Source of the DNA: Mayamaea pseudoterrestris
Lineage: Eukaryota
Direction: 5' to 3'
Length of the DNA stretch: 47,453 nucleotides
Assembly: GCA_027923505.1 (NCBI GenBank)
Contig: BROI01000036.1
Coordinates: 186,001 to 233,453, forward strand
Numbering within the stretch: the first letter of the stretch is position 1; every line of letters begins with the position of its first letter. Shown here piece by piece: positions 1,464 to 32,646 of this stretch. The position numbers were made by a program, and so were the translations under genes. Below the pieces are notes generated by a model, which was not told the origin of the DNA, made no database searches, and saw only the letters and a list, made by a program, of their open reading frames with translations.

Positions 1464-2711
1464 TCAAGCGCTATCATTCTTGGGACCATTGCTGGCATCT
1501 CGCTCTCGTTGCTGCTGCTGCGCCAAGAGGGCTCGCAGCAAGGGAGTTTGAAGGTCGTTTGATGCTGCTGCTGCTGCGGACGATGGATTAATCCCCAACA
1601 ATGTGCTTGCTCCTCCTCCAAGTCGGCCTTGCTGACTTTCGCTCAACAAGAGTCGTTGTGCCGGCGTGAGTTGGTCGAGGAGTGACGAGGAGCCTGCCAT
1701 ATATGACGATGATGGATGGGCTGGCTGGCCCAGTGAAAACAGGAGACGTTGCTGCTCCATGACATCGCGCTGCGCAAGCATGGACGCCAAGGACGATGAC
1801 GTCGCTGATGAATCTTGCGCTGTTGGGAAGAGAGACCGCATATCTGACAAGCCGGTGGCGGCTGAGTGCTGGTTAGACAAGGAGAGTGACTGCAGCAAGG
1901 CTTGGTGCTGCAAATGGCTATTGCTTGCTGCGGCCAATTGCTGCTGCAGTGACAAAGGCGATGGATCCACGCCCAAGGACCCTCCAGCTGCAGTTGGTGA
2001 AAACAAGCTGCCCGCTCCTTGACTCATGGTGAGTCGTTGACGCAGTAACGCATTCTCGTTTGACAGCGACTCGACTTGGCGGACAAGCTCGACGTTGAGT
2101 CGCTGCAGCTGAATGTTTCTGGCTGTATATTGGTCTACTTCGCTGCTCAAGTCTTCAATCTGTTGCTTGGTTCGCTGGCGAGCTCGAGCAGCGTTCATGC
2201 GGTCTGTCATTCAAGAGTGCAGAGTGTTGCGTGGTGAGGCGCAATGAAACGAGCAGATTCTGATCAGGGATTATGTCACCCCTTCCAACTCCCGGCCACT
2301 TACTGTAAGACCGTTTGGCTTCAAGTCTACGTTGTTCAAGACTTATGTGTGGATTCCCAGGTAGTGTAGCCATTTTGGTTTGGCTGTCGGAACCATCTAA
2401 AGGTGAGTGTGAAATCCCGATACACGTGTGAGTTGCAGTGACATCATTTGCGATTCGTTTGTCCACCAAAAGTCGCGCCTTCTCTCATATCATTTCCTTT
2501 CGATGCATACAATAAGGAGCACTTGCAATGATGATGATTAATTACCTCCTGCTTCATCGCTGCGTTCCGATACCTCGGCGAGTCGTTTGCTATTGCCGGC
2601 AGCACCAATTGGCTCTCTCGCTGACTTGCTCTCGTCGCTTTCCAAATCATCATCTTCCATGTCTTCATCAGCACTACTCCCTTTGGAAGCCGCATAACCT
2701 TCTTTCTGCAT
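1464..2711 (-). CDS. bZIP transcription factor (paralog 1), 3 exons: 2711-2546, 2396-2304, 2203-1464
   Basis: GT-AG introns 2545-2397 and 2303-2204 (both phase 1) join an acidic N-terminus (MQKEGY...DEDMEDDDLESDE) to EAKRSY-N-RMNAARARQRTKQQIEDL (basic N-x7-R motif), a heptad zipper (I..L..V..L..L) and a Q/S-rich tail. Confidence 0.88.
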
Positions 2712-3572: not shown

Positions 3573-4583
3573 TTATGCGGAACTGGCAAAAATGAGACGC
3601 AGCAGTGCCTGCTTCTTGTCAGCGTCCGACACCTGGTTCGAGGACGGGGAATGTGCCCCCATGAGTTGCTCCTTGAGTGAAAATGGCATGTCAGGACCCA
3701 GTTGGATCGGCGCACGATGCAGGGCCGACAAGAGGGAGTTGGTAGCTAGCAAGTTCGAATGGCCGCGTGGCTGTGTGACACTGATGCATCCATCCTCGGC
3801 GTTTAAGCCATGCCAGCCAAAGATCGCTGCGCCAGTTGGTGCACCAGCATCTTTCGACTGGGAACAAGTCAGTCTGTTCAAGAGCGCGGCGCGAAGGAGC
3901 TTGTTTTCCGATTCCAAGGCGTTGAGCCTTTCCGACAGGTCATTGTTCTCGACTTGCAGATGACTGCTCGACTCGGCCAAGTCGTTTAGCTGTTTGCGCA
4001 GGCTCTGTATCTGGTCCTTTGTGCGCTGCCGAGCACGAGCGGCGTTCATTCGATCTTGAAGGCAGAATAAATAAAGTGAGAATAAGCTTGCTCCCTTCTT
4101 TCAAAGCACGACAATTGGCGATATGCCAGGCGAGAATTGTGCCCTTCCATGTCAGACAGATGCAAATACTTACTGTAGGCTCTCTTTGACTCGATAAGCT
4201 TCTCCTGGGTGTCGCCTTCCGACAATGAATCAGATTCGCTAGCTGTGAGACGAGTACAGCAAGGAGTGAGTGCAGAATACCTACGAGTAGTTTCGTTCAC
4301 CGCCAGCTGTGTGGGTGAACCATATCCAAGCCTCGCATCCAGAGTAGAAGCAGTAGTTTATGTGTATTGTTACAAGCCGGTCAATCGCCTATTGTCCAGC
4401 GCAGCCATTAGAACATAATACTCTACAACTTTGGCTTGATCTCGCAAACAATGCGCCTCTCTTGCTTCTTGTTCCTTGTTCCTCCAAACACTCACCTTTG
4501 CAATGCGTCCGCTTCTTCATCATTGGCTGCTCCTCGACTGAAAAATCTTGGACGCTTCGCTTGTTGTCCATCGTGCCTGCCAT
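3573..4583 (-). CDS. bZIP transcription factor (paralog 2), exons ~4583-4496, 4242-4174, 4054-3573
   Basis: Intron 4173-4055 (TAC A|GTAAGT...AAG|AT) restores ESKRAY-N-RMNAARARQRTKDQIQSLRKQLNDL plus zipper. First exon (MAGTMDNKRSVQ...HCK, donor G|GTGAGT) is phase-compatible but less certain. Confidence 0.8.
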
Positions 4584-5138
4584 TCTTGGATTTTGGTAAA
4601 TGACAAGGTGCATGCATGCAAGCATGACTCCGCCCTATTCTTTCAAAACCGACGCATCGGAGCATTCTTGCACGGATGAACTCGAGGTACGACTGACATT
4701 TCTGCGCGTTCCTTGAAGTTAAGTTGTTCGTCCTTGTGACGATGATGAGCGTCACATCGAGGCTGTTGAACAATGACTGTGATATTAAGAGTAGTCCATG
4801 AGTCATTATTTCTCCGTCTGATTCCGTGACGCCATTTTTCTTCAATCTGTGCCTTGCAGTCACTTTGAAATCTGCTGACGTACGTTTGGTCGGATGGTGA
4901 CTATTGCCGCGTGTTTCGATTGGCTGGACATATTCGTCGGAGTCGCACACCGTGCGCACTGTGACGCCTAGAGTACTTGCGATCCTTTCGCTCGCGGAGA
5001 AGGGTCCTGCACCTTTTTTCCTCGTGGTCCGACTCATTTGCCGACTCCGTTTCGTCATTTTCAAGCCAAAGACTCCTTCATATCCAAGCAATTTCTGTAA
5101 CGGAGCAGACGATAGACTCAATCGATACTACGGTAGTC
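4584..5138. promoter_or_regulatory. Divergent promoter between bZIP paralogs 2 and 3 with CRE/AP-1-like sites
   Basis: ATGAGTCAT 4798-4806, TGACGTAC 4876-4883, TGACGC 4827 and 4962, GCGTCA 4749. Motifs seen directly; function inferred. Confidence 0.45.
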
Positions 5139-6407
5139 ATGGAAGGGGAGAGCAGCCATTCGCAGCAGTCAAGCATCGACAAGAAGCGCAAGATCGATGA
5201 GGCTGCAGCTGCTGCCGAGGAATCGTTCGACGGAAGTGCTGCGAGTCATGCTTCAGACTCTAAGAAAACGTATGGAGACGATGACGATGAGAAGAAGCGA
5301 CTGGAGGAGAAGCGAGCGTACAGTAAGTTTTACATGGGAGAGTACTGATCGTGAGACTGGGTGCATGAAAACTGGATGTTCCTTGCTTGCGAAAGAGGTG
5401 CTGCAGGAGCTTGAGTCGAATGACTTGATCGAAACGCACGATATTAATCTCAATTCAACTCATTTTGCTCTTTCATTCTCTTTTCCGTAGATCGCATGAA
5501 CGCAGCTCGAGCTCGCGCCCGCATCAAGGTGCAGATTGGCGAATTGAGCAATCAAGTCGAAACGTACGCTGCCGCGAATCTTCAGATTCAGGAGCAAAAC
5601 GAGGAGCTTACCAAGCGATTGAACCTACTGACGGAGGAGAATATGAGACTGCGAGCTTACATTTTGAATCCTGGAGTCGCTGGAGTCGGAATGCCAGTGC
5701 CGCAAATGGATCAATTAATGCAGCAGCAGCAGCAGCAACAGCAGGAGAATGGAACGAGCAATGGCAACTCTGCTCCATCTTCGGACGCGCAGCCGCAGCA
5801 ACCTCCACTAGCCTTAGGACAGCAGCAACAGCAAAACCCGGCGGCTTCGGTTCTACAGACGAATCAGGCGCTCCATCAAAGCATTACGCAGCAGCAACTA
5901 CTTTTGCAGCGCCTGCACCAGCAGCAACAGTTTTCCAGCTTGAATCCATTTGCAGCCGCGCAGTCCATGATGCAACATCAGCAGCACATGCCGAATGGAA
6001 TGGTTATGGCCCAGAATAATCAGCAAGGCAACAATGGGAACAATAATAGCGGCAACAACCATCAGTTGAATGATCAGCAGCGCATGCTGCTGGAGCAAAT
6101 GACTCGACTGCAGCAGCAGCAGCAGCAGGTTCCGTCGTTCAGTGTCAACATGGGACCGTCGGCCGAGCAAAACATGGCAGTCGTGGGTCAGTTTCTGCAG
6201 CAGCAACAAGCAATGGGACAGGCGCAGCAGCCAAACGGCGTTGGAGACGGTCAGCAGCAGTTGCCATTGTTGCAGCCAGCAGTGGCGACGCAGCAGCAAG
6301 CTCTTCCTGCACAAGAGACGCAACAGCAACAGAAAGATGGTGACGAAGGATCGTCACTCAATGATGAGTCCGACTCGGATGATGGTGATGACGACGATGA
6401 CGAGTAA
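5139..6407 (+). CDS. bZIP transcription factor (paralog 3), exons 5139-5322, 5491-6407; poly-Q C-terminus
   Basis: Intron 5323-5490 (TAC A|GTAAGT...CCGTAG|AT) gives EEKRAY-N-RMNAARARARIKVQIGEL plus zipper. KKRK NLS-like motif in exon 1; Q/N-rich region and acidic tail. Confidence 0.9.
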
Positions 6408-7699
6408 GTGTTAGGTTTTGGTGCAGTTTTAAATGATAATGGGAGCGTTTTGTAAATGTAAACTGTCTGCCACATAAGAAGTCAGATACAATTTCATCAT
6501 CAGCCGCGATGCTGAAATCATAGTCAACTCCAAGCTTTTCTCTCGCCGCTCGTCAAAATAGGCTCCTTTTATGCAAGGGCGCCGATGGAAAGCCTTTATC
6601 GCATCGTTGAAGCGCATCGTTGAAGCGTTCGCTTCAAAGATTGCAGGTCCTTGCTTGGTATATAGCCGCCACTTGTCGCATCTGCATGTACATCTTGGTT
6701 CTCGGTGTAAAAGCCCACCATCCCGTCGGCAAAACTGGGTAAGGTATTGAATTGACTGTGATGCAAAATACGAAGCGTTGGAGATTGGCGCAAGCGATAT
6801 CTTACTGTGCACGTCCAAGTCCTTCATGTTCGTCGTATTTTTTTGTTCATAAGCATTCATCTTGTAGCTGTTTCAACAAAACCCATGAATTATCAATGCA
6901 TATCTTTGTAAATTTCACTCAAGCTGAATGAATGAGCAGTGGACTCTGCATGGGTCGAGTCTGCGAGGGTTAATTGTTTCACGCAGGCCTTTTGATTGGC
7001 TCTTCTAATGCATTCGTTGAATGCACTATTGGTAGAAACACCTATCTTTCCTTTTTGAACGACAATATACAGCGTCTGGTTGCAAACTCAGTTAGTTGCT
7101 TGCTTGCTCGCAGCTCATTGCTGATTGCTGCCAGAGCCAGAGTCAGCGTTAACAGATCGGGAGAGCGATAACAATCATCGTATTGACCGGCACTCCTTGA
7201 GTCTCTCCAATCTGCAAGTTCGTTCGCTTGTGTGCATGAAGACAAGCTTTGAAAGTGTTGCCTCGATAAAAAAAGGTATTGCTAGAGTGCACGAGCAAGG
7301 TTGTAACGTCACATATTTGCCCAGTCATGATGTGTCACTGCATTTATACTATACTGTAGTCGACTTGATCTTCCCCGCCGCTAACTTGGGTGACTGGGAT
7401 CGCCCCTTGTTCATTGTCGAACGACGGCTTGATTGCCATGGTCGAATGTTGATTGGCGATGCAAACGAGAAACGCGATTGTGCGTTTCCCAGTAGAATGA
7501 AAAATGTACACTTCACCCAACAATCATCATGAATACTACGTCATCGAATCCGGGTCCTGGACCCATCAAAGCGCAAGCGTTGCGTCTCCACCATGAGAAA
7601 AAGGCCGGTCCATCGTCAATTCAATTTGAAGCTTGTTAGACTGGGTCAAGAGCTTGCATCTACTTATAAAAAGGATCTCTTTTCCATCATTATCAGAAA

Positions 7700-8942
7700 A
7701 TGGAATCATCCTATCCCCGCGGTAGCAGCAATCGTCGAAGCGGCAATCCTCGCCACGCCAAGCAGCGAGCCGGAGGCACGGCGGATCGTCCTTTGGCGGC
7801 CGAGGATGAATACATTCGGTCGTTGCGCAAGCGTCAAGTCGAGCGAGAGCAGCAGCAACTGAATAGTCATGCGGCAGCATCAGCAAGCAGCAATTCTAGT
7901 CCGCCTCCGACGAGCCGAACGAGCCCATCATCCAGCAGCAACCGAAGCATTTACGACGATCACGAATCTACCATTCGAAGCAGCAATCGAAGGACATCGG
8001 CAGTGAATTATACAGGCAGCAATTTGCATTCCTCTACTAGTAGTCGCCGAAATTCAAGTAGCAGCAGCTGGCGCAAGGAAGAGACTGATTCATCGACGGA
8101 GCAGCCGCCAGTTGCATCGTCTTCGTCGTCGTCACGAAGGAATGCGTCTTCTAATTCCAATTCATCGCACTACCCAAGATCCAGCCATGGCAGCAGCAAT
8201 AATAATATGAACGCATCGTCGTCGAGTCACTATCCAAGCGCAAACGCTACAGGCAGCAGCAGTCGCGGCGGAGCATCAAGTCGACGTCAACAACAAGTAG
8301 CACCAGCAAGTTTGAGCGCCTCTTACACTGCTCCATCGGCATCATCACATTTATTTCGCGACGCGCCCTACACGAGCGCCTCTTCATTGGCGTCTCCTCA
8401 CTACCATAAGAGCAGCGTCAACCTTTCAGGCAGTGCAGGAGCCAAGGAAGTGGTGCTCGTGAGCGGCATTAGCAGCAGCAACAGTCATCTTTCGAGTGCA
8501 AACGCTACTAGTCGCATTGAATTAGCAGCAGCTCCAACGTCCAGTCACCAGTTACCTATGTCTCCGCCGCCGCTGCCACTGGATCCGGCGTCGTCAACGA
8601 GTGCGCGCGTCGTTCAAGTCGATGGACATCGCTACTCGGTGTCAAGTAGTTTAAGCGGAAGCAGCAAACATATCGCGCGGCAGAAACAACGGAGTCCCAG
8701 GCGGTCCGAAAAGGAGTCGATGAATCATGCAGCAGCTGTAGCAACAAGTAGTAGCAGCAGTCCCAATGATGTCTTGACGCGAAGCAGTCAGTCGAGAAAA
8801 CAAGGAGGAGGAAGTAGCAGTCACTCGCGCAAGGTTGTTACGGACGATGGAGTCGGAGGCGCTGATGTAGCAGCAGTGAGGCGAAATCAGGCAATGCAAT
8901 CCACAGCGGAATTTGCGCAAAGCCATTCACAATTGCCATTGA

Positions 8943-8974
<32 letters not shown>

Positions 8975-11900
8975 TCGACACCAGTATTACCAACTCCGCC
9001 TCAAGCAAGTAACAACAACAATTCATTCGACGTACTGGGAGGTTCGGCCGCTGATAATGCTCGGGCACTGCGAGCGCAGCGACTGCGCGAATCAGTGGTA
9101 CGACGAAATTCAAGTAGCACCGTCATGGCGGCCGTGGCTGGCTTGGAGGAGGTAACGGGCAAGCAGCAATCAACGACGGATAATGATAGTGGAACGAACA
9201 ACAATCAGCAACAATTACCGCAGCAATCTGCAACGCCACTGGTGACGCAGGCAACCATCGCTCCTAGTCCAGTTTCGGCGCCCTTGAATTTGCCAGGAGT
9301 CAATCAGTTTTTGTTGCAGCGACGAACAACAACGACATCGTCGGCCGTTGGAGACCTTCCACTTCCGTCGACAATGCTTCGAAGCCAGACGGTACCAAGC
9401 ACATCTGGTCGGCAGCAGCAACAAGGCAACAGCAATACTAACAATGCCACCATGATGTCGTCACTACTGTCACGCGACTCGAAGAGTTTTGAGTTTGATT
9501 CCGATTCATCGAGTGACGCCGCCGAAGCTGACCAGGAAACCGCAGCGAGTGGCGAGGGCTACTTGTCGAGCGACGACGATGACGATGAATTTACCGATAA
9601 CATGCCCGAGTACAGTGTCCGCGTGTCGATTGTTTCAGCCGTGGATTTGCCGGCCAATGTTGTTCCAAACTTGCCGCTCAGTCCAGTACTGCGCGTTGGC
9701 TTGGTGCGCATGATGCCGGAGCAAGAGAATCCGCAAGGCGACTATGGAGATGATTACACGAGTATTGGCGTCAAGAATCGACAGGAGCAAAATCAAAAGG
9801 CACTCATGACAAAAATTGTTTCGACTGGTCTTCAATCAATTCCAAATGCCAAGGTGCGAACAACATCCGCCAAGATTTTGAGCAAGCGCGACAATGGCTC
9901 TGTTGAATTTCACGAGGAAATGCGATGGGATCGGGTCCGCTATCCGGACCAAATGGTTGTTGCCATTGAACTTTCGTCACGAGCCGTCATGGTGCCTCGC
10001 AACATTAAGGAAAGTCCGCCACCGCCTAAGGCACAGCAGATTCCATTCATGATGAATGGAACTGCATCACTTGGCACGTTACAGCGACAGGCAGAAGCGA
10101 CGGCGGACACTACTGCGCGAGGAAACTTGGCAGCCTTTGGTTCGCTGTTCAAGCGACCGGCTAAGAAGGAAAAGGAGATTGAAACAGCCACGGCTGCTGC
10201 CGCCGTTGCACACATGCTTGTAGAACCTGCGGACGGTGAAGCGCCGAGACAACCGACGATGCGGCCATTGAATCAAAGTGAACTGTATGTCAAACTTCGA
10301 CCAAGAAAACCTCGAAAGAAGAAGCTAAAAATGACGGAGGACCTTCACATTGCATCGCAGGTCATCCCTTTAACGAAATTGCCGCTCCGCAAGGCACTGC
10401 TGGGGATGGATTGTGCCCGCATCGAGCAGTGGATTGAACTGGATGGCTCTTTCGGTGCATGCGCGGTGACACCTGGTGCAGCGGCCCCATTGGCTAATAA
10501 ACGCAATCCAAGCATTTTGGTTGAAATTACCTTTAGTCCGACGGAACGTCTTGATGACAGCGAGGATGACATGGACGAAGATGACGATATGGAAGCGCAG
10601 GTTCGGGCGTCCTATGCGAAGCGACAATCAATGAAAATTCGGAACCAGTTAAGGGAAGAGTCGGCACGACGGGAAGCCAAGCATCAAGTCAAGAAGGAAC
10701 CAGAATTGGTGCCAGGTGTAATAGATTTTGTTTGTGTAGTCGGTGCACGCGATATTGGCGACCAAAAGTATGATGATGGATCCAATGGTTGGGTCAATAG
10801 TAGTCCGGAATGCTGCATACTCGAGCGATTTCCACCGAATGACGACTTTCATCTTGACAAGGGAAGGATTGCGACATTGCCGGACAAGGTTGAGTGGTTT
10901 TGCTTTCCTGATAGCTGCCGTTTATGGAGAGGGTCCACTCCGCCAAACCTGGACGAACTGAACCTCCAGCGGTTTTCGGCGTCGTCGCCTGCTAATATTG
11001 CGACATCAATTGCTTCCTTTGACGCATGCCTTGGATGCACCACATCCTTTACATGGTTTGTTTTGTCATCAAACTCGGATGAATACGGTTCTGAGAGTTC
11101 GAAGAATTATGGTGCAGCAATTCGATTCTTTGTTCCGTCCCCAAGAGGCATCGATCCTACGCAGGATGATTTTGCGCAGGCAATTATGGATCCGGATGCA
11201 GCGGATGATTTTGATCTCCCGGGCGGCAAGCGTTTGTGGGTGCCGATGGCTGTCATGATCACTTCTCGCCTTCCCATTATCGGAACAATGGAAGTAATGC
11301 TGCTTCGTATTTGCGAAGCGCTTGGTAACATTGGCATACCAGGAGATTGCAGTGGTCTTTCTCACGTTCTGCACAAGGAATTGGCAAGTCTGATTGTGTC
11401 TTACCAGCGACCCATCCCCGGCGTCGTTCACTGCTCGGTTCCGTTCCTGGCTGGTGATCGCTTCCACATTGCTTTGCCTCCTCCCGGTGGGCTCCCACCT
11501 TTGCCGCACGGTAATTCAGTAGCATCAGTCTGCCGACTACTCGGTCCGGATGGTTTGAATTTCCTTTTGGCTGCCTTTTTGACAGAGTGCAAGATTGTCT
11601 TGCATTCTAATGACATGGCGAATCTTTGTTTAGTGTCGGAAGTTATGACAGCGCTCATTTATCCGTTCACATGGACGCTGCCATACGTTCCGGTCCTTCC
11701 GACCGAAATGATTGAGCTAATCGAGGCGCCACTATCGTACCTGATCGGTGTGCCCAGTTGCAATATGAAGTATATAGATCCCAGACAAGTGGAAGATGTT
11801 ATTTTTGTTGATCTTGACAAAGATTTCTCCTCTGCGGACTATCAGGAGTCGAAGGATGCCGGAGCTAAACTCAAATCGTCGACCCCTCTTCCTGCGTCTG

Positions 11901-14900
11901 TGGCGAGCAATATATCAAAGGCAGTTTACAGGTTGCTACGGACCGAAGAGGAGAATGAAGACGAAGACGTTGTCGTGCCGACGGAACGCTCGTTTCCGCG
12001 GATGGAAGCTGAGAGTGCAGCTGAGCGCGAGTTTCGTGTTGCTGTGGCTATTGAAATATGCGGATTGTTGCGTGGGTTCCAGGATTGTCTTATCTACGCG
12101 TCGTCGGCACAGCCTATTTTTAACATCGATCGGTTCCTCCAGATTGCACCAGCATTATTTGAAGAGCAGCGCGGCACATCCGCGCAAGGTTCACAATTGC
12201 TTACGCAAGTATTGTCACCAAGGTCTCGCCGCTTCATGTCCATTCTAGTCAACTGCCAGCATTTCCACCAATTTTTGGAGACACTCGAGTCGGAGCACAC
12301 CTTATTCTTTCGCGAAATCATGTCCACCGTTCATGCGAACAGCGCCACTCGTCGTACGGGCCGATCAGGCCAGCTGACTCTTGACTATCAAAACACACAA
12401 GCATCACTTTGTACCTTTTTGCAAAGATTGGAAGATAAAGTTCCTACGTATCATGTTGGTCGAGTTTTTGATGATACTGAATATACGTTAGATCAAAGCC
12501 AACTAATCGACAATGGATCGCGCTGGCCTCGAGATTTACTGCAGCGAATATCGACAGTCAACGACTCAATGTCGGTGGCAGGTTCCGTCGACCAGTCTGA
12601 CGGCGGCATCAAGCAGATATCCGTAGAATATCTCGTTGAATTAGAGAAGAACCCCTGGCGGTATCAAACTCTGTTTGAAATCCCTCCAGAACACTTGGCA
12701 GGCGCCCCATTTGAATCGGCAGCTCGAAAAGTGAAGCTAAAGGACGCCATTGGTGAGCGACGCTATCAAGCTTGGAAGTTGGCGCTTGAGCAAGAGAAGT
12801 TTGATTTTGACGATTCGAGTCCCTTGTCACCCGAGCCGGGCACCAAGTCTGCATCGGCTAACTTGGATTTAAATTCACTGCTCACGTCTGCTGCAGATGA
12901 TGTCGCACCACTGTCTGCAAATCCGTGGGAAGACGGTTTTACGAAGAGCAAACTTGTTTCTGCCCAGCAACGACTGCAGGATGCTAAAGATCGCGATGTT
13001 TTACGGCGCTGTATTGTACATGCCCTCATGAATAAAGCTTCGAAAACGAAAGACTCAGTTGCCGAAAACGATATGGTTAGTGAGTCGGAAATTGCTCTTC
13101 GAAATGAGTCGGCAAGGAAGTTTCTGCTGAATGTCTTGAGCAAAAGGACACCGACTTCTGCAGATGGCGCCAACGATAAGCGCGCTCTTTCGTCTGCTGG
13201 CGCGTCCAAGCTTGAAAACAACGCGTTTCTCATTTTACTTCGCCTCGGTTGTGCACTCTTGGACGCTTGTATTGAATTAAAAGATTATGATTCGGCATAT
13301 GCCATACTGAAGCTGACAGCAGGCATCTATACAATTACTGGCGATAAAGAGAATGTTGCCGTGTCTTATTTGACTGCACGCTTGGGACTACATCCGATAT
13401 TTGGAGACATGGGCGTTTGGGAAAGGTCGAAAGACCTCCATGTTGCCGCTAGGAGAGAAAACAAGGCGGAGGAAGCTGCTTCAGGCGCCAAAGCAGAGGA
13501 ATACAACGAAGAAGAAGATGAGTACGATGCTGCCGTTGCAACACTGTACGAAATGCTTGGGTACGGAATACCTTCCGAAGAATTGGCACGTTTTGCCGCT
13601 CGGGTGAACGAAATTCACGGTTGGCATCACTCGGAACGTGGCCAGTCGTTGCTTATGCTTGCGAGGAGACTATCGGTTCGACGAGAACATGGTGCTGTGG
13701 GCACCTCCCCCGAAAAAAGGAGCGACCTAGAGTTTATGAGTTCATCTTCAGGACCTGCGGTTGCTCGTCCTGCTTTGAAGGGCGAATTGGAAGTACAAGC
13801 CGTCGATAATCCTGCTGCTGTCAAGGTTGAATCGGCAGCGTGTTCGATTGCTGACAACAGCCAAAATCTCCTTTTGAACTCTGATGCGCCAGCGATTCAA
13901 TACGATGAAGACTTTGAATGGGTGGATCTTGGATGGTGTCACCCCGCTGCCCAGTCGCGTCGCATGAACACTGGCGCGTCTCATGATATACGGCGGCCTG
14001 GTGGTACTTCAAGTTTGTTGAGCATGCTGGACGAGACCAAAATTAATGCGGATGCAGCCAAGCAAACAACCAAGCATATGAAACGATCCGCTATCACATC
14101 GATGGCTTACCTCGGCGCTTCCGTCGTGGTCACGGGCGGTATCGACGGCGGAGTTTTTCTCGCTCGCAAGACGTTTCCCTCAACAGAGTCGTCCAGCGTT
14201 CCGGACGGGACGGAAAAGAACGGTGTTTGCGGCGTTCATCTTGACTGGGGAAGCTCAGGCAGTCGCTATACGGTTGGCTCAACCACCAACACGTTGGATG
14301 GCGAGTATGGAGTTGGCGCAGTAACTTGCCTGGCCACTACGAGTGGAGGAAGCCTTTACGCATCTAAATCACAGTCCAATAGCAAAGGAGTTTTTGATAG
14401 CGTTGCGTGCTTGGATGACGAGGATCTATTGGAGGCTATGGAAGGTCGGCGAGTGGTGGCTGGAACGACATGTGGGGATCTGCGCGTATGGTCCGTCAAG
14501 GATGTTTTCTCGTCCGTTTTTTACTCCAACCACAACGAAATGGGCTCGAGTGCCAGTAGCAGTATCGCTCAAAGTCATGCTTCGGGCGCTGCATCCAGTC
14601 GCGTGGCAAATCCAGCACGACGAAAGTCTGCAACGGACTTTGCCGCAGGAAGCTCCTTGACGAGACTAAAGTTTTCGCTACGTGGCAGAGCCTTATCGGG
14701 TCACCGAGGCGGTGTCTCGTGCATTGACGTTCCTTCAAGCATTTATCGCCCCGATGCGATTGTTTCAGGAGGCGCGGATGGTCTGATCAAGCTATGGAAC
14801 CTTCGCTCGCCTGGTGCTGCCGCCACGCGCATGGATCAAGCTGTTGCTGCAGGAACTGGCGCCGGCGATACATTGGCTCAGCAACGCAGCAAGTCTGCTC

Positions 14901-15700
14901 CAACCGGCGATGCTTTGAGTATTCTTTCAGGACATGGTGGTCGGATTTTGTGTCTCAAAACCGCATGGCATGGCGATCGTCTTCTGTCCGGTGGAGCTGA
15001 CCGTACCGTTCGCATTTGGGATCTTGCTGGAAGTGGCGGCCGATGCCTTCACTCCTTGTCGGGCCATTTGGGTTGGGTGACGCAGGTTCAGTTCTGGGGA
15101 CCAAACACCATTGTGTCTGCATCGACAGATCGTTCCGTCGCCTTGTGGGACGCTCGTGTACGAGGTACGCCACTCTTTATGCTCCGACACCATTATGCTC
15201 CTGTCTCGGATTTGCTGGTTGGGTCGCGGACGGATCCTATAATGATTAGTGCCGGCAGCGATGGTTCCATCGCCGCTTGGGACTTCCGCTACCTTTCTAA
15301 CGATCAAGGAGCTGGGCCAGGGCCATCAAAAAAGCAGCAGCGACTCTGCACAACAGTCCGCGATCCAGATGGACGGCTATTCCTTCAGAAATACAGTAAA
15401 CACGGCCGTGGTAGCGGATCAGTGTTGCTGTCGCGCGGTCCAAACCGAGTTAATCGCAAAACCATTCTCTGCGTTGGCACTGACAGCGTTGTCCGCGAAT
15501 GGGACTACCAAACGGGCCAAGTAGTGACGGAACACGCCACTGGCCACTGCGACTTGGTGAGTTCCTTCCACTCGGTCCAAGGCAACAAGCTGTACGACTC
15601 TCAACTGTCTTCGAGCGCCCGCATGACTGGAACAATATCAACGTCGTGGGATGGAACGGTTCGAATGCGCACACTAGTGGCCACGACGGCTGAAATATAA
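7700..15700 (+). CDS. DENN-domain / WD40-repeat protein (putative Rab GEF, SCD1/DENND3-like architecture) with C2-like segment
   Basis: Single 2666-aa ORF. uDENN (VIDFVCVVG...LERFPP...WFCFP), cDENN (LLAAFLTECKIVLHS...LIYPFTW..PYVPVLP..IEAPLSYLIGV), dDENN-like (FMSILVNCQHFHQFLE) and C-terminal WD40 repeats (LSGH..V..IVSGGADGLIKLW; LSGGADRTVRIWD; SASTDRSVALWD). Confidence 0.9.
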
Positions 15701-16226
15701 TGCGCTTGCGTAAAATAATATAGAATACAAGTATATATGCGTTAGAGAATAGAAATATGATGTTTTTTGTAATTATAATATGTTGCCAGCCTACGTACGG
15801 CATGCTCTGGAATGAATGGCACGAAAGTGAGTTCTGTCTGGAAGTGGGCGGCTAATCCAAGCTCTTTTGATACCAAGGTCACAGATAATCTGACCTGCAC
15901 TTGTCAGCGGCATGCTATAGACTGGTTTGGCATGATACATTCATTGTTGCCCATGAGATTGGTCTTGGAGTGGGGCGTTGGTAGGGCGGTTGTTTCCTTC
16001 GATAATCGCCAAACGAGTCGAGATCGCACCGGTTCTAAAAGGGAAACGCTGCGACAGGCAACGACGTACGTCACGGACCATCATGATGGATGCCATCGAC
16101 AAGAATGCGTGACGGCGACGACGAGCAAGCAAGAGGCGACGCATCCCAAGCATAGTAAGCATCGTTTGCGAAGGGATACTCTCATATCAATACTCTACCA
16201 GAAGCCAAGTCTTTTATTGGTCCAGA

Positions 16227-18151
16227 ATGATGCGCGTCTCAATATTCAGTCTCCTCTTGATTGCGTCGTCGTCCAGCGCCTTTACGGCTGCGCCTCGAAG
16301 CAATGCGTTTCGTCATGCACTCTCCATGGCGGACGCTGCTTCGTCAGACTTTGACTTTGACGTTGCCATTATTGGATGCGGAGTCGGAGGACATGGAGCT
16401 GCTCTACATGCACGAGCGCAAGGCTTGAAGACGGCAGTCTTTGCCGGAAATGACGTTGGAGGGTGAGTGAATCGTCATTCATATTCAATGCTGCAAGACT
16501 GCAGGAGTGATCTTAATATATGAATGACATGAATGGAATGAGAGTTTATGCAAGATGCGCGGAAAAAAGAAGAACCGAGGCTGCATTAAAAGCAAGAGGG
16601 AGGAACCGAATGACGGCTCGGAGACGAGAGGAGGTCAAGCATCTAGAATGATCCATTGATTGCTTTGTATATCTGTCGCCATGCTTCTTTTGTTTCACTT
16701 AACTCAATCATTTTAAATCTTTCAAATCACGTTAGAACATGCGTCAATCGCGGCTGCGTTCCCTCCAAGGCTCTACTGGCCGCCTCTGGTCGCGTCCGCG
16801 AAATGAAGGACGCAGAACACTTGGCGTCGCTTGGAATTACCGTTCCAGAAGTTTCCTACGATCGGTCGGCCATTGCGGCGCACGCCAAGAACCTGGCCAA
16901 TCGAGTCAAGGGTAACTTGGAAGCCAGCTTGAAGGGACTTTCGGTGGATGTTATTGAAGGCAAGGGCTCGCTGACTGGAGTGGCGCATGAGGTCAAGGAC
17001 CAGTCAACGGGCAAGGTATATCGCGCCAAGGATATAATTTTGGCACCTGGATCCATTCCCTTTGTTCCGCCAGGTATTACCGTTGACGAAAAGACAGTCT
17101 ACACGTCCGACGGTGCACTGGAGCTTCCCTTTGTTCCAGAGTGGGTTGCCATTATCGGATCCGGCTACATTGGACTTGAATTTAGTGACGTTTACACAGC
17201 GCTTGGCTCGGAAGTTACCTTCATTGAAGCACTACCCATGCTCATGCCAACCTTTGATCGCGAAATTGCCAAGCAAGCGGAGCGATTCTTGATTCGCGAG
17301 CGAGCGATCGACTACCGCACTGGAGTATTTGCGGCCGAAGTCACGCCGGGTATTCCAGGTGAAAAGCCTGTCACGATCAAAATGATTGACGCCAACACAA
17401 AGTATGTCATCACGAGTGTTCTTGTCCGATAGCTTATGCCGCATATGTAGCTCATTATTCCCTTCTCTCTCACTCTCATTAACACAGGGAACACGTCGAA
17501 ACACTCGAGGTCGACGCTTGCATGGTTGCCACTGGCCGCGTTCCAAACACCAAGAACATGGGCTTGGAAGACATGGGCATTGAAACAAACCGCGGATTTG
17601 TCGCCGTCAATGAAAAGATGCAAGTCATGACCAAGGCTGATGGCGGTGAGCTTGTTCCGCACGTGTACTGCATTGGAGATGCCAACGGAAAGATGATGCT
17701 GGCGCATGCCGCTTCGGCCCAAGGTATCAGCGCCGTCGAAAACATTGTTGGGCGTTCCCATGTTGTCAACCATGACGCCGTTCCTGCTGCATGCTTTACG
17801 CACCCTGAAATTTCCATGGTTGGACCGACGGAGGAACAATGCATTGAAAAGGCCAAGAAGGAAGGATGGACGCTTGGTAAGAGTCAAGGCAACTTCCGCG
17901 CCAACAGTAAGGCATTGGCGGAAGGGGAAGGCAACGGTATTGCCAAGGTTCTTTTCAACAAGGATACGGGCAAGGTTGTGGCCGTTCATATTATTGGCAT
18001 CCATGCGGCTGACTTGATTCAAGAGTGCGCCAACGCTGTCGCCGCTGGAACCACGGTGCAGGAGCTATCCATGATGGTGCACACGCACCCTACGCTTTCG
18101 GAAGTAATGGATGAAGCCTTCAAGGGAGCAGTTGGCATGTCGTCGCATTAA
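16227..18151 (+). CDS. lpdA: Plastid dihydrolipoamide dehydrogenase (PDH E3), exons 16227-16462, 16736-17401, 17488-18151
   Basis: Signal peptide + SAF cleavage motif; FAD GxGxxG (IIGCGVGG); spliced redox motif [25 protein letters not shown]-terminal HTHPTLSE. Both introns are GT-AG and restore frame. Confidence 0.95.
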
Positions 18152-18431
18152 ACGAATGATTGAGCTGGCGGCGCAGCGCTGATGATTTTGAGGCGTGACG
18201 GCGGCTTCGGATAGTCAGTGTATACTGGATTAGTAGACAAAAATTACATATTTTTCGCAATATCTGTTTGCGTAGTTTGTGGCGGACGCGTGTTTATTTT
18301 TTATACACTAAAAGCAACCTACGGCGAAAAACACCTTTTCTTTATCTCACGACGGAACAAGTAAGTCGATTAATCTGATTATATCAATTTATAGCTGTCG
18401 ATGCATGTTCCATCAATTGCACCACTATCTC

Positions 18432-20280
18432 TTACACATACTGCACACGCATCAAGTTGGTGCTTCCCTTGTGATGAATTGTTCCCGTAATGACAATGAC
18501 AGCGTCGCCCTTTTTGAGTCCATGTGACTCCTTCATTTCTTCCAGGCAAGTGTCAATGTTCTTGTCCAAGTCGCCAAAGCTCGTCAAAACCTTGGCAGCC
18601 GCCGACCGCAAAACGCCACAAACCTGACGAGCCACACGAGCTTCCAAGGTCAAGCACAAGATTGGCACGCCCGGACGAAACTTGGCCACCTGCGTGGCAG
18701 TCGTTCCCGACTCGGAACACACAATGATGGCCTTGGCCTTGACGTCAATCGCCGTCTTGACGGCCGAGCTGGCAATCGACTCGGACGTGGACAAGTATCC
18801 ATACTGCGCCAGCGTGCTGTTGCGGACGGCTTGGTAAAGCATGTTCGTGTTTTGGGCACTCTCTGCTTCGACGCATGTTTGACTCATGATTGTGACGGCG
18901 GCCGTTGGGTATTGTCCATTGGCCGTCTCACCCGACAACATGACGCAATCGGTTCCGTCCAAGACGGCATTGGCAACGTCGCTACACTCGGCGCGAGTGG
19001 GGCGAGGGTTGGTAATCATGCTTTCCAGCATTTGCGTGGCCGTCACAACTGGCTTGCCGGCAATGTTGGCCTTTCGAATCATGTACTTTTGCGCCAAGAA
19101 GACCTTTTCGGGAGGGATCTGCGGAAGTGAGGGAAGCAAGCGTGAGTCGGTGTGACAGGCTAACTTTGTTCAAAAACAAAACTGAAGTATTTCATACATA
19201 CCTCCATTCCAAGATCACCACGAGCCACCATGATGGCATCCGTCGCTTCCAAAATGGCATCATAATTCTCGAGTCCCTCCTGATTCTCAATCTTGCAGAT
19301 AATCTTGATACCTTCGGCGTTGTGCTCCTTGAGAATCTCGCGAATCTTGTGCACATCCTCCGCCTTTCGAACGAAGGATGCCGCAATAAAGTCAATCTCG
19401 TTTGGAATACCCCAATTGACAATGTCATCAATATCCTTGTCCGTCAACGTTGGCAAGTCCACGACGACGCCAGGAAGATTCATGTTTTTGCGCTCGCCAA
19501 TGGCCACAGTATTTTCAATGCGAGTTTCGACCGTCTTTTCCGCTTCATTCGTCGAAAGCACCGTCAAGACCAATGAGCCATCCGCCACTAGAATTTGCTG
19601 TCCCTTGGTAACATCCCGCGCCAAGTTTGGGTAGGAGCAAGCAATCTTGGTCGAGTCGCCCTTGAAGTCATAGTCGGCCGTGAGCGTCAGCGTATCGCCC
19701 TTGTTCAGCTGCACCTTGTTGGCGCCGTTGGCAAAGAAGCCAGTGCGAATCTCGGGTCCCTTGGTGTCAAGCATGACGGCTGTTGAGTGAATGAATTGGG
19801 TGAGAGACAGTAGCGAGTGATAACTGACAATGACATGAGACTTCATGAACGAATCTTGAACTCAATTGCCATTGAATAGCAGCTTCATCATCGCCCTTCT
19901 CACCAGACAAAACGCTCAACTTCTCCTCTTCTATGATATCTCGCTCTTTCAGATCCGATATACATCAATGACATCCATTCCAATCATGATGCAATATAAA
20001 AGTACGTACCAACATGCTTATTCTTCTTCTTTGCTGCTTGACGCAATCGATCCAAACAAGCCTTGTGTCCCTCATGGTCTCCATGCGAAAAGTTGAATCT
20101 GGCCACTGCCAATCCAACATCCATGAGTTCCTCCAGCTGCTCCACCTTCCAGCAGGCTGGTCCAAGCGTGCAAATAATCTTGGACTGGGCCTGCGAATCG
20201 TTGACTCCCAAAATGCTTTCCAGCGTAATGTTGGCGCCGCGAAGCTCGGGGCCGCTGGTGCTCGTTTGACTCAATGACAT
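18432..20280 (-). CDS. PK: Pyruvate kinase (no obvious targeting peptide, likely cytosolic), exons 20280-20010, 19779-19202, 19118-18432
   Basis: [90 protein letters not shown] introns restore frame. Confidence 0.96.
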
Positions 20281-20560
20281 ATTAGTAGTGATAAAAGGAG
20301 AAGGCTACTTGTTGTGATGGATGGATGCAGCAATGCAGCAATGCAAATTGTAATGCGAGAAGCAGCCAAGGTCGTTGTCGGGAAGCAAGCATGCAAGCGA
20401 TGCATGGTGGAAAGCGGCGGCGCGGTGGCGAAACTGACGTACTTCTGCAGTTGTCGGAGCGGGACAAAAGTCGCAGCGGTTATTGGGTCGTGGTGGCGCG
20501 CCATGTTCAAAGTTCAAAGATCGACACGAGGCAAACCAAAACCAACAGGACTAATCTACC

Positions 20561-21442
20561 ATGTTCTTCTCCAACACAGCCGCACGAAAGGAGAAGCTCT
20601 GCGAGCCGCTCAAGGGTCCTCCACCAGGTCGTTACCCTTGCAATCCGACGCTCCTGCTGGGAATTCCACGATTCATCGCCGAGGAGCTGCACCATGTACT
20701 CATCAACGACTTGGTGTATTCGCGCACCAGCAAGCTCCAGCAAGAGTTGAATCCTCGTCTCTCCGACTTGGATCTATTGCAAATTCTTGAAAACTTGTCG
20801 GGGTCAGACTTGATCAATTTGACAAAAGCCTATAATGGAAGTATTTTGGTTCTGGATGACGACATTTACGTCAATGACACCGATCAAGTGAGTGCAGCAA
20901 AGCTTGAACAGGTCTCTGCTTTAGCTCCCTTTCAGGCAATTGTCGTTCACTCCAATTTCGTGTACGAAGATTCGATTCGTGAGTTTACTGTGATGAGCTA
21001 CAATCAGCATGGGACGTCGGTGGTATACATGTCGATTGAAGGAATCTTTGACATGTCAGCCTTGCGGCAAGCGTTTGGAATTGACTGGAACCTTTCCGCA
21101 TACACAAAGCGCCAGATTCAACTCACAGCAAGCCAGGGCCACCGCATACTTGGCCGAAACGCGTTTCACCCGCACGACACGTACACAAAGGCACATTACG
21201 TCACTTCACGTCGAGCCGAGGAAGAGTTGTTTGCCGAATGCGTTGATCCGACGGACTATGAGGGAGAGGACGACGATGAAATGCCGGCTCCATCTCCAGG
21301 CTCGCCAGCGTTGGCTCATATTGACGGCAACAAGAGCGTTTCGTACTTTGGTTTTGTGAATTCACTGGATGTTTCCTACGGCGCAATCATGTATCGACTT
21401 TGCTTTGCGGCGGAATTTGACAAGGTTGAGAAAAGCAATTGA
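20561..21442 (+). CDS. Hypothetical protein (293 aa), divergent from PK
   Basis: Long ORF with globular-looking composition followed by an AT-richer 3' region; no recognised motif. Confidence 0.65.
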   Translation: MFFSNTAARKEKLCEPLKGPPPGRYPCNPTLLLGIPRFIAEELHHVLINDLVYSRTSKLQQELNPRLSDLDLLQILENLSGSDLINLTKAYNGSILVLDDDIYVNDTDQVSAAKLEQVSALAPFQAIVVHSNFVYEDSIREFTVMSYNQHGTSVVYMSIEGIFDMSALRQAFGIDWNLSAYTKRQIQLTASQGHRILGRNAFHPHDTYTKAHYVTSRRAEEELFAECVDPTDYEGEDDDEMPAPSPGSPALAHIDGNKSVSYFGFVNSLDVSYGAIMYRLCFAAEFDKVEKSN

Positions 21443-22027
21443 CCAAGTTAATTTGGAGGAACCAAATGCTTGCTGACGGCATTCGATTTCGTAAATATAA
21501 TTCTCGCGACACACTTATTACATAGGCAGCTAACCTGATTTTAGTAGTTTTAGTACTTAAGCATTCAAGTCTACCTATGCCTCCGCTGTCCAACAATCGT
21601 CCAGCCATTTCGCAAATGCTCATGTAAAAGTCGCGAGAGCAGTACAGCAGTAGACTGCTTGGGCAGCGAGTATACTTCTTGATTGTCGTTTCGACTAACA
21701 GTAAATCGCACTTTAGAGCCTGAAAGCAGTCGCAAATGCTAGCACGAGAGCAGTGTATTCCAATTTCAATTCGAATCATGCTGAGGGCTTGCATCACCCC
21801 AAAGATAAATCCCGTGATTTGCATTTGGTATGTATTTGGGCAATTCCCAACGCAACAATGGTTCGACGTTCGCAGCACGCGATGGCAAGATTTCTGCGTC
21901 GAGGATCGGGTGTGCTTACTACGACGTGCTTAGCGCACCGGAAGGCTCGTAATATAATTTGCTGAGACGGTTTGACAAGCATGATACAATAATAAGCATA
22001 CTCAATACATCATTACTTTAGACACCT

Positions 22028-23691
22028 CTACACTGGAAGACCTCCGCGCCGAGGTCCAAGAATGTTCTCCGCCACTTGGGCTTCACCCAGTCCCAAAATA
22101 TTTTGACATAGCAAATCACTGTAGGATTGTTGCAGGCGCTCCACCGTCTTGACTTCGGCGGAACGCAAGCACTCGCGAGGGTCGTAGTACTTCTTGTTGG
22201 GCTTGTCAGCACCTTCAGGGTTACCAATCTGAGTTTGCAAGTAGTCATGGTACTTGGCTTCGAAACTACGAATACCTTCCCAATATGACCTAAAAAGCGA
22301 CATTGATAAAGAAGTTAGTCAGTATCAAAACAAACCAATGAAGAATGACAAAATTTATAAAGACCGCAACGTACCATTGGGTGTCCGTGTCAATGTTCAT
22401 TTTGATGACGCCGTAGCCAATGGACTCTTGGATATCATTGATATCCGATCCACTTCCTCCATGGAAAACAAACTTGACTGGCTTGCCGTCAGCCGGAGCC
22501 TTGTCACCAAGCTTTTCCGCAATGTATTCCTGTGCGCGCGACAAGATTTTGGGCTCGAGCTTAACATTTCCTGGTGAATACACGCCGTGCACATTTCCAA
22601 AGGCAGCAGCGACAGTGAACGCCTCGCTGATGGGAGTCAACTCCTTGTAAACTTGGTAAATCTCCTCCGGCTTGCTGTACAAGTCCTCGGCAGGTCGGTC
22701 CGAGTTGTCAACACCATCCTCTTCTCCACCCGTAATGCCAAGCTCCATTTCCAGCATGATACCAATCTTGGACATTCGCTTCAAGTACGTCTTGCAGATT
22801 TCAATGTTTTCCTCAATCGGTTCCTCCGACAAGTCAATCATGTGACTCGAGAACAATGGCTCGCCATGCTGCTCAAAGTATCGCTCGCTTGCCGCAAGGA
22901 GTCCATCAATCCATGGAAGCAGCTTCTTGGCGCAATGATCCGTATGAAGAATGACAGGAACTCCATATTGCTCGGCCATGGTTCGTACATGAAAAGCACC
23001 CGATACGGCTCCAGCAATAGCAGCCCGATAGTTGGTATTGTCTAGTCCCTTGCCGCCGTAAAACTGCGAACCGCCCGAGGAGAATTGAATGATAATGGGA
23101 GCGTCGTTGCGGCGAGCCGCCTCAAGACAAGCGTTGATACCCGATGAGCTGACGCAATTGACTGCTGGAATGGCGTAGCCTGTTCAGTGATGAGTGAATG
23201 GAGAGTGCAGATAAGAAAACGAATTGTTCAGGAAAATGACGTCTGAATGCGTGACAAACGAAGTCTCCCAAAAACGAAGCGCTGTAAAGCCATGAATTTC
23301 GGCCGACATGGTCTCCAATTCAAGCCAGCAAGAAGCTGTCAATCAATTGTATAACTTTCAGAAGCAAATCAGACTAGCCGAGTCCTCCAAGAGGTCCATT
23401 CGTTCCGTTTCATTCACTTGTTCCTCCGTTTCCCAGCAACATTGGCTTACCTTTCTTCTTGGCATCCTCCAAAAGGTCAACGACAGCCTGTCCACTCAGA
23501 ACTCCAGGATGGACTGAATCTGGCATATTGGGGTACTTGGTGATGGCACATTCCGCCTCGCACGGCAAGCCAAGCTCGCCCGCCGATCCAGAGAGCGCAG
23601 AATTGCTGCTGCAACTTTTTGGAGCGGAATGAGTTGCAAAGGCGACTGCGACTTGCGGCAAGAGCAGTAATGCAAGGACTTTCATCATCAT
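22028..23691 (-). CDS. FBAC1: Plastid class II fructose-bisphosphate aldolase (FBAC1-like), exons 23691-23451, 23179-22375, 22289-22028
   Basis: Bipartite presequence (AVA-FAT); YAIPAVN, IIIQFSSGGSQFYGGKG, ILHTDHCAKKLLPW, FSSHMIDLS, EMELGITGGEEDG, AAAFGNVHGVY, VFHGGSGS, KMNIDTDTQW, NKKYYDPR. Class II is secure; the FBAC1 isoform name is from recollection of diatom homologues. Confidence 0.93.
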
Positions 23692-24093
23692 TCCCTACGT
23701 ATATCTCACAGACTTATTTCAGAGGGTCGAATAAACGATCGTATGAAAGGTCAACAGGTTTGACGATGGTGATGAAACTCATTGTCGACGACGAAACCTC
23801 ATCGTCGCGGATCTTGCGGCTCGCAAGCGCAACTGATGACGTACGTGCGTCGGCGCGCCAGCCCGGTGCCATAACCGGTCCGACATCCATTCTTTAAAAT
23901 TCGCGCGCGCCGTGCTTCCAACATGCGAGCTACGCTACTTGACCATGGACCATAGTTTGAGCCGCACAGAAACGCATGCACAAGTCATGGTATATAAGTG
24001 CGCTACAGTATAAATGTACATGCAAAAATCCCTGTTATATTGTAATATCTACCGATAACATACACTCTCCGTACAGTATTGTCGCTCTGAACT

Positions 24094-31360: not shown

Positions 31361-32646
31361 GGAGCCATCATCCATTGATGCAAAGACGATTTTCTATAAA
31401 AAAATGTTACATGATTAAACTGCATAGACTTTGTAGCGACGCAAATCGCGTATACTCGCAAGCTTCGCGTAAGTTGCGGCCGCGTCAATGCAGCACGAAT
31501 GCATAAAGTAGAACCAATGATTTCCAGGAAACAATTGCCAAAGAATACTGCCGTCGTTGTTCCTGATTCAAATCATAGCCAATGCAAACATTGCTCGTAT
31601 CCAGTATTTCCAAGTTGAGCACACTTTAATGATAGAAGAAGGAAGCTTGGTAATGACGTGCCGCGTGGAAGCCGCGTTGAACTAGCGCTGACTCAAAGGC
31701 CCTCCTCCTCGTCGCATGCATAGAGTAGGGCTCATAATTCCAATCTAGTCAAGGCAAGTAATATGGAGTTGGCGCTGCTAAAGTTCCAAGTGTAGTTTTG
31801 TCGTGCATGTTGCATCTTGTTGACCTTGATGGCTGGCCTTCTCCTCGCCCCAAGCTTCATGGATTGTTAGCTACTCCACTGAGAACGACATGAAATGACT
31901 CCTTTCATTATGAACTAATCGCATCGTCGCATCGTCGCATCGTCTTGCGAGTCAATTGAATGTTGGAGCCATGACAATACATGGTGACGACTGCCAATCC
32001 TAGCTCAGCTTGTCGTTTCGTTCGTTGAGAATGGACCTTTGTACGTTCCGTCTATTCCGATCTTGCTCAAAGCCATATGCAACGTTTTCGCTTGTGATTG
32101 TCGTTTCGATGCTTGACTGGCCGATGGCGCCGCAAGTCATTAGTCGTCGTTTGCAAATTCTGTCAGCATGTCTGATTCCGTCAGACGTGACACATGCAGA
32201 CGCACAAACCATGACGTTTCAAGTCGATTGTCTCATGATATCAAGTCGAGGTAAACGATCCGCTAGAGTACAGTACTTCCCAGCTTTGTGACTTGCCAAA
32301 AAGTCACGTCATGGCATGGTCGAAATTAATGTGCGGCGACGAACATGAGCGCCCGGAACGCTCGCTGATTTGTAGTAAAAGTCGTACCGGTACCAGATTT
32401 CATTCCCGCTAAATGGCAGAGATAAGTTAACGGCTTCCCGCTTACTTAACGCCATGCTTGTCACCAACTGCACGCATGCACAAGCTTTGTATGTTGTAGT
32501 CTGATGTTTAAATTTAGGTGTTGCCTTGGGGCCTGCCAGACCACTGCACTGAGCTTGATCTTGGATCATTTTGGAGCACATTGACAGCATTAATGGGAAC
32601 CTAACTGGAGCAGCCAAGTCCTGTTAGTCATGACCGTATCAATGTT

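Follow-up and report, generated by a model that had tools for sequence, protein, structure and literature searches.

A 47,453-nt stretch of nuclear DNA from the diatom Mayamaea pseudoterrestris (the window, within which all positions are numbered) carries an 8-base word, GTACGTCA, whose copies outside repeats are all intergenic and all sense to the gene that follows, and whose core is conserved in the same orientation upstream of pyruvate kinase (PK) genes of other diatoms. The word is very likely a real promoter-associated gene switch. Its enrichment, its intergenic sense placement and its conservation at PK together point to a proximal promoter site that is conserved, keeps one orientation and is of the TGACG kind, like the cAMP-responsive element (CRE) and the diatom CO2/cAMP-responsive element (CCRE). 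The initial annotation of this DNA had proposed that three neighbouring genes for bZIP-like proteins (bZIP1, bZIP2 and bZIP3) co-regulate adjacent carbon-metabolism genes through the word; such a linked bZIP regulon is without positive support. M. pseudoterrestris is a freshwater pennate diatom, and its genome report describes a 30.6-Mb assembly with 11,019 genes and a diploid genome with 2.97% heterogeneity (PMC9724779).

Placement of the word in the window

The genes downstream of the word were identified by Pfam as encoding a DENN and WD40 protein, a dihydrolipoamide dehydrogenase (LPD; Pyr_redox), PK and a class-II fructose-bisphosphate aldolase (FBA), which bears out the names they had been given. 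The exon structures of bZIP3, LPD, PK and FBA were fixed by contigs of runs X3 and X4 that join across GT..AG introns fitting the reading frames, and the start codons of DENN, LPD, PK and FBA (Table 1) were derived from open reading frames (ORFs) together with the spliced contigs. On recount, the five sites and the four distances to an ATG (156, 153, 154 and 145 nt) reported in the initial annotation were all exact, and the copies at DENN, LPD, PK and FBA were all sense to the downstream gene, as had been claimed. The further copy reported from the bZIP2/bZIP3 promoter was present as well, its GTACGTCA part lying at 4876-4883 (-). The DENN promoter contains the 7-mer TACGTCA only, not GTACGTCA. 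Each promoter holds one sense copy; LPD alone adds an overlapping antisense GTACGTCG, and upstream of bZIP3 the motif is antisense only. ACGTCA is contained in all six sites of the window listed in Table 1. The four sites before DENN, LPD, PK and FBA fall within a spread of no more than 11 nt, which under random placement in 300 nt gave P = 2.6e-4 in a post hoc calculation.

The word was enriched in the window. TACGTCA occurred 12 times against 3.7 expected, GTACGTCA eight times against 0.89, and the 10-mer ACGTACGTCA, common to three of the sites, three times against 0.05; none of 100 dinucleotide-preserving shuffles reached any of these counts. One-mismatch variants of the motif were not enriched in the window (36 versus 28 expected, with 7 of 100 shuffles reaching the count). 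Half of the eight GTACGTCA copies fall in a repeat-rich, copia-like region (~32.6-42.8 kb; RVT_2 at 39107-40687), where two of the copies represent one segment duplicated at 99.9% identity. The other four are independent and non-repeat, and all of them are intergenic and sense to the next gene (bZIP2, LPD, PK and FBA). In a comparison of the 300 nt preceding each of 15 ORF starts, read on the sense strand, the most widely shared 7-mer and 8-mer were TACGTCA (five regions) and GTACGTCA (four regions). Other words shared among these regions, namely AGCAAGC, TGCATGC, CATCGTCA and TCGACAA, had no consistent position. Altogether, four to five of the 15 promoters in the window carry the element and 10 are without it.

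The position of the word relative to transcription was approached through the PK contigs and the upstream ATGs. Spliced PK contigs from X3 and X4 reach through exon 1 to 20380, where they stop 55 nt short of the motif. For each of the four genes, ATGs ahead of the start codon are confined to the first ~57 nt after the motif, and from there an ATG-free run of 88-123 nt extends to the start codon. This run after the early upstream ATGs suggests a transcription start ~50-60 nt downstream of the motif, which would place the motif in the same zone as the diatom CO2/cAMP elements. Those elements, TGACGT, ACGTCA and TGACGC, lie at -86 to -42 from the transcription start and are targets of PtbZIP11 (PMC7378808, PMC11142338). 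Pairing transcript-like with genomic PK contigs to place the start gave a single pair (L002/L005), in which the motif was not included. A scan of the PK promoter for bacterial-type promoters and terminators, which is not relevant to a eukaryote, gave no match.

Other short words were noted near the motif. In the bZIP2, PK and FBA promoters, three of the four with an exact copy, GTACGTCA is preceded at 1-12 nt by CCGAC (4889-4893, 20453-20457 and 23849-23853, all -), giving three matches against 0.00 in shuffles; CCGAC was noticed post hoc and may form the other half of a composite element. TCGACA and CGACAA are each found in seven of the 15 upstream regions, and (T/C)CGACAA is the most widely shared 6-mer word there, including the LPD and FBA promoters. 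The longest spliced PK contig ends exactly at a (T/C)CGACAA copy, 20375-20380 (-), so that this word could be initiator-like, bearing in mind that contigs do not reveal where transcription begins. DNA-like contigs of runs X1 and X2 differed from the window at 12 positions within 4682-5081 and at one position, 7544, among the 40 differences listed of 428; among these same 40, none fell in the motif copies 4876-4885 and 7537-7543.

Table 1. Motif copies and genes of the window. P0001 is a hypothetical protein of Mayamaea pseudoterrestris
Feature	Positions	Strand	Details
TACGTCA (as CTACGTCA)	997..1003	-	5' end of S/Q-rich ORF 3-1208; possible sixth promoter copy if the true ATG is further downstream; uncertain
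ACGTACGTCA in bZIP2/bZIP3 intergenic DNA	4876..4885	-	sense to bZIP2, 250 nt before annotated ATG 4625; antisense to bZIP3, 255 nt before ATG 5139
TACGTCA (as CTACGTCA)	7537..7543	+	156 nt before DENN/WD40 ATG 7700
ACGTACGTCA, within palindrome GACGTACGTC	16064..16073 (GTACGTCA 16066-16073)	+	153 nt before plastid-type LPD ATG 16227
GTACGTCA	20435..20442	-	154 nt before PK ATG 20280; in the 280-nt divergent region shared with ORF 20561
ACGTACGTCA	23837..23846 (GTACGTCA 23837-23844)	-	145 nt before plastid-type class-II FBA ATG 23691
bZIP-like gene 1	1464..2711	-	predicted exons 2711-2546, 2396-2304, 2203-1464
bZIP-like gene 2	3573..4625	-	exons 4625-4496, 4242-4174, 4054-3573; 226 aa, identical to P0001
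bZIP-like gene 3	5139..6407	+	exons 5139-5322, 5491-6407; X3 contig joins 5322 to 5491
DENN + WD40 protein	7700..15700	+	single ORF, 2666 aa; Pfam
Dihydrolipoamide dehydrogenase (LPD)	16227..18151	+	522 aa; introns 16462-16734, 17402-17487; Pfam and spliced contigs
Pyruvate kinase (PK)	18432..20280	-	no presequence; introns 19119-19201, 19780-20009; Pfam and spliced contigs
Class-II fructose-bisphosphate aldolase (FBA)	22028..23691	-	435 aa; introns 22288-22372, 23179-23449; Pfam and spliced contigs

Conservation at pyruvate kinase promoters of other diatoms

Conservation in orthologous promoters, a check named in the initial annotation, was seen at PK. Metagenomes were scanned with PK exon 1, and 80 loci of 60-74% identity were kept of 277 relatives. 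Of these, 52 were transcript-like (21-211 nt before the ATG) and 28 were genomic with at least 250 nt upstream; the latter dereplicated to 22 promoters. The pre-specified core ACGTCA was found in the sense direction in 8 of the 22, compared with a simulated mean of 2.8 (P = 0.005), whereas antisense TGACGT was found in one (simulated 2.0). In an unbiased ranking of 6-mers, ACGTCA came 36th of 4096, and GTGCGT, CGTGCG, TGCGTC and GCGTCA all ranked among the first 20; these four led to GTGCGTCA, which differs by one base from the word of the window. With both variants allowed, sense RCGTCA was present in 12 of 22 promoters (simulated 4.6, P = 0.0007) and its antisense form in 2 of 22 (simulated 3.8). 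Across the PK orthologues the sites amounted to 15 sense versus 3 antisense.

The longer word GTRCGTCA was found in the sense direction in 7 of the 22 dereplicated promoters against a simulated mean of 0.25, and none of 5000 simulations reached seven. Within the 28 genomic loci (66 kb), 10 of its 12 matches lie at -153 to -263, all sense, and no antisense match occurred in these 66 kb. The 5' untranslated regions of the 52 transcript-like contigs contained no motif, the word being present there only inside coding sequence. Measured from the ATG, the copy starts at -162 in Mayamaea and at -153 to -162 in L003, L013 and L017/L020. Locus L013 carries an intronless PK gene whose product shares 96% identity with a protein of Skeletonema menzelii, and the named matches are all diatoms, indicating that the element spans centric and pennate diatoms. 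The consensus of 13 promoter instances is C (9 of 13)-G/C-T-R-C-G-T-C-A, with C or G in the next position. Each orthologue site has ACGTCA or GCGTCA, and at the same place some related PK promoters hold the ordinary bZIP cores TGACGTCA, CACGTCA and GACGTCA.

As a separate observation at L013, a 442-aa open frame diverges from PK (L013:1329-1507), its ATG being 178 nt from the PK start with GTGCGTCA between the two. The region upstream of PK in this locus is a very compact bidirectional promoter.

Relation to known elements and a possible mechanism

Animal CRE/ATF half-sites and plant TGA/as-1 sites have a TGACG core near the transcription start and are read by bZIP dimers, usually in either orientation. 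The sequence TGACGCAC reportedly stands in the 35S promoter of cauliflower mosaic virus, and the variant conserved in centric diatoms is TGACGCAC. The diatom element shares the TGACG core with these sites; unlike them it keeps one orientation, and it belongs to a different kingdom. Aureochromes, the bZIP-LOV photoreceptors of stramenopiles, are said to target TGACGT, and the Mayamaea element has the same 6-mer core as this stramenopile bZIP site. It differs in having an extended flank and a fixed orientation, neither of which is described for aureochromes in the accessible parts of PMC10967249 and PMC11219949. The parts available of these two reports and of PMC7957498 gave no diatom motif beyond TGACGT.

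The closest resemblance is to CCRE1-3 of the Phaeodactylum tricornutum genes PtCA1 and PtCA2. These have a TGACG(T/C) core, and GTACGTCA contains ACGTCA while GTGCGTCA contains the complement of TGACGC. Both are diatom elements, and the Mayamaea element is probably proximal like the CCREs, which lie within about 300 bp of start codons (PMC7378808, PMC11142338). In CO2-responsive promoters the core stands on both strands, and promoters with the core on one strand only have been suggested to be regulated differently (PMC11142338). The Mayamaea element, in contrast, is a single copy, always sense, and has the extra conserved (C)GTR. It also stands at glycolytic and plastid carbon genes and at DENN, and is not known to respond to CO2 or cAMP. 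The proposal of a bZIP-type site held as far as the TGACG/ACGT core is concerned, which resembles the diatom CO2/cAMP elements. The two-strand arrangement of the CO2-responsive promoters was not seen in the window, which has single sense copies apart from the antisense overlap at LPD.

In the diatom literature searched, GTACGTCA was not found treated as a motif, its letters apparently standing there within primers or sequences. New here are the shared 10-mer ACGTACGTCA, the conservation of sense GTRCGTCA at PK and the low frequency of the core at neighbour genes. Very few diatom cis-regulatory elements have been defined, and almost none with conservation evidence. A word of 8-9 bases that is constant in sequence, strand and distance at PK from centric to pennate diatoms offers an experimental entry to the control of central carbon metabolism, a useful part for promoter engineering and a bait for its factor.

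On balance we lean towards a proximal element that is read by a diatom-wide bZIP-type factor and serves a dispersed target set including PK, with the three neighbouring bZIP-like genes not its regulators. What we infer is which kind of protein binds, how far the motif lies from the transcription start, how it affects transcription and how many genes it targets; the mechanism would run as follows. The element, upstream of the transcribed region and ~150-160 nt before the start codon, would be a site of the TGACG/ACGT-core type, akin to the CRE, the diatom CCRE and the plant TGA site. Its consensus (C)GTRCGTCA on the sense strand, equivalent to TGACGYAC(G) on the other, would work in one orientation. 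A bZIP-type factor conserved across diatoms may read it, and the asymmetric second half-site (GTRC, not TGAC) suggests a heterodimer. Binding would activate or tune a dispersed gene set comprising cytosolic PK and, in this species, also plastid FBA, plastid LPD, DENN and at least one bZIP-like gene. The four to five carriers within 24 kb would then be due to chance and reader selection, or to loose clustering of co-expressed genes.

The compartments of these genes bear on how the set is described. LPD starts with a signal-peptide-like stretch followed by SSA|F, and FBA with one followed by AVA|F, which we take to be the diatom plastid-import pattern. Judged from their presequences, LPD and FBA are plastid-targeted, and PK is without a presequence, indicating that the carrier set is not one pathway. 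The description of the adjacent carriers as one set of carbon-metabolism genes accordingly fell, because DENN is not a carbon-metabolism gene and has the 7-mer only, and LPD and FBA have plastid presequences whereas PK has none.

Several points weigh against a dispersed element read by a conserved bZIP factor. The comparison between species covered PK promoters only, and the GTGCGTCA variant emerged post hoc from the very data in which it was counted. The flanks TTC...C are common to L003, L013, L017 and L060, four of the seven carrier loci, which are probably of one order and hence not independent. In the PK orthologues the pure ACGTCA sites, at -208 to -379, are more distant from the ATG than those of the window. 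The placement at -50 to -60 from the transcription start is an inference, since contigs cannot show a start, and the binder may be a non-bZIP factor. Finally, chance accounts poorly for four carriers in a row of 15 genes should the element be rare in the genome: the probability of at least four carriers of 15 is 1.8e-4 when 2% of genes carry the element, 0.005 at 5% and 0.056 at 10%. A rare element thus makes the run unlikely, yet the window was picked by a reader from ~650 windows of its size, so that real local clustering is still conceivable.

bZIP-like neighbours, rival explanations and repeats

The three bZIP-like genes, which are paralogues, share the position of an intron (KRAY|N), and their basic region, MNAARAR-R-K-QI--L, does not vary; the stretch NRMNAARAR, invariant in all three, is unusual. 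Proteins of the bZIP type have N-x7-R in the basic region, then nine residues, then heptad leucines. P0001 has N66...R74...L84 (N-x7-R-x9-L) followed by six leucines at 7-residue spacing. Two of the five classical base-contact positions differ from the usual residues (N for A/S and A for S/C). P0001 stayed under the Pfam gathering scores, with 14.3 bits for bZIP_2 (cut-off 22.3) and 13.5 bits for bZIP_1 (cut-off 27.6), and its best PDB matches were marginal (Pap1, E = 0.04; ATF-2, E = 0.048); its nearest Atlas clusters were bZIP (0.92, low recognition). An exhaustive phmmer search gave 96 relatives of the trio, whereas a word-based protein search gave 2-3. A further relative is encoded elsewhere on this same M. 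pseudoterrestris contig. Thirty of the 96 were checked, and 26 matched bZIP_1 at E<0.01 and six passed a curated cut-off. On the strength of transitive homology, basic region and heptads, we call the trio divergent bZIPs although P0001 lies below the Pfam cut-offs; the earlier designation thus stands for superfamily homology and the N-x7-R-x9-L heptads, but not at the level of the Pfam bZIP models. The trio and the environmental relatives P0002 and P0003 also share a C-terminal motif, (E/D)KKQALLRLI(L/F), and the intron inside the basic region. The annotated starts of P0002 and P0003, at a Met just after this intron, probably reflect truncated gene models.

Could these neighbours be the readers of the word? 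In a linked regulon, one or more of the adjacent bZIP-like proteins would bind GTACGTCA, regulate themselves through the bZIP2/bZIP3 copy and co-regulate DENN, LPD, PK and FBA. In favour of this are the four exact 8-mers and one or two 7-mers before five to six of ~15 adjacent genes, all no more than 24 kb from the trio, one of these copies being between two genes of the trio itself. Neighbour genes other than PK seldom have the core in other diatoms (1 of 10), which makes the local run unlikely if the element is rare, and the trio belongs to the bZIP superfamily by the transitive homology described above. An unusual basic region also meets an unusual GTRC half-site, although connecting the two is speculation. 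Metabolic clusters of fungi and plants that contain a transcription factor gene of their own offer a precedent, in that regulator-like genes stand beside several genes sharing an upstream word, with a copy in the regulators' own promoter region; in Mayamaea, however, the carriers do not form one pathway and belong to different compartments. On the other side, the trio falls below the Pfam bZIP cut-offs with marginal PDB matches, and DENN is functionally unrelated to the other carriers. No link between the neighbouring bZIPs and the motif was found: at PK the element is kept in distant diatoms with a different upstream neighbour, and ORF 20561, LPD, FBA and ORF 24094 had no tblastn match beside PK in any of the 80 loci (flanks of 1.5 kb or less). 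A chance run among ~650 windows is plausible if at least 5% of genes carry the element. A diatom has some 20 or more bZIPs, which gives a low prior for any given three. We therefore regard the linked regulon as unlikely, and its fullest form as very unlikely, namely an ancient carbon-regulon switch fixed in orientation and position, read by a heterodimer with at least one NRMNAARAR bZIP in it, with the regulators beside four targets and feedback at bZIP2/bZIP3. The diatom nucleus would then hold regulators physically linked to their targets as one module. The finding offers a concrete, cheap genome-wide test of co-regulated gene clustering in this small genome.

The remaining explanations concern the nature of the element itself. 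It might be read by a non-bZIP factor, for example one recognizing a GTAC core or a CGTNCGT direct repeat: the extended consensus C-G-T-R-C-G-T-C-A reads as two CGT units, its second half-site is not known to match a classical bZIP half-site, and exact copies are enriched whereas one-mismatch copies are not. As TGACG(T/C) is the best-documented diatom bZIP core (PMC7378808, PMC11142338), and related PK promoters hold ordinary bZIP cores at the same place, we consider such a factor quite unlikely. A generic core-promoter-like element, lying ~150 nt before the ATG of a large fraction of genes and having no regulon meaning, would account for the strict orientation and narrow position, for the presence of the motif in four to five of 15 promoters in an arbitrarily cut window, and for the copy at 35000 that stands 22 nt before TATATAAG in the retroelement region. 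It fits poorly with the 10 window promoters lacking the motif and with the absence of antisense GTRCGTCA from the 66 kb of flanks. A candidate divergent upstream ORF was present in 10 of the 22 PK loci, and sense RCGTCA within 300 nt of the start was found at 1 of these 10 neighbour ORFs versus 12 of 22 PK promoters (Fisher P = 0.02; crude ORF calls in other species); at a 30% share of genes, P(0 of 10) would be 0.03. The element is thus probably not a generic core-promoter element, and we give this explanation little credence. That the pattern is a chance or compositional artefact, with random matches noticed after the fact, is hardly credible: the distances and the CCGAC co-motif were indeed noticed post hoc and half of the 8-mer count comes from repeats, but the shuffles never reached the 7-mer, 8-mer or 10-mer counts, all four non-repeat 8-mers are intergenic and sense, and the conservation in PK orthologues is independent of the window.

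The repeats of the window were also recorded. Inside the copia-like element, a 1788-nt segment is repeated head to tail at 35418-38989 with 99.9% identity, duplicating one ORF (35256-36827 and 37442-38611); it arose either through recent duplication or during assembly. Another repeat, of 438 nt (34565-35000 and 35083-35511), stops precisely at the GTACGTCA of 35000, with TATATAAG 22 nt later. Arrays of ~172-181-nt repeats lie in opposite orientation on both sides of the retroelement region (32634-33472 and 42240-42819), together with a 386-nt direct repeat at 33531-33916 and 41663-42048 that is 96% identical. From 43875 to 47453 the window is a G-rich degenerate minisatellite (GC 0.66, GC skew 0.66) of GCAGTGAGG-like units, which opens long spurious reading frames on the minus strand.

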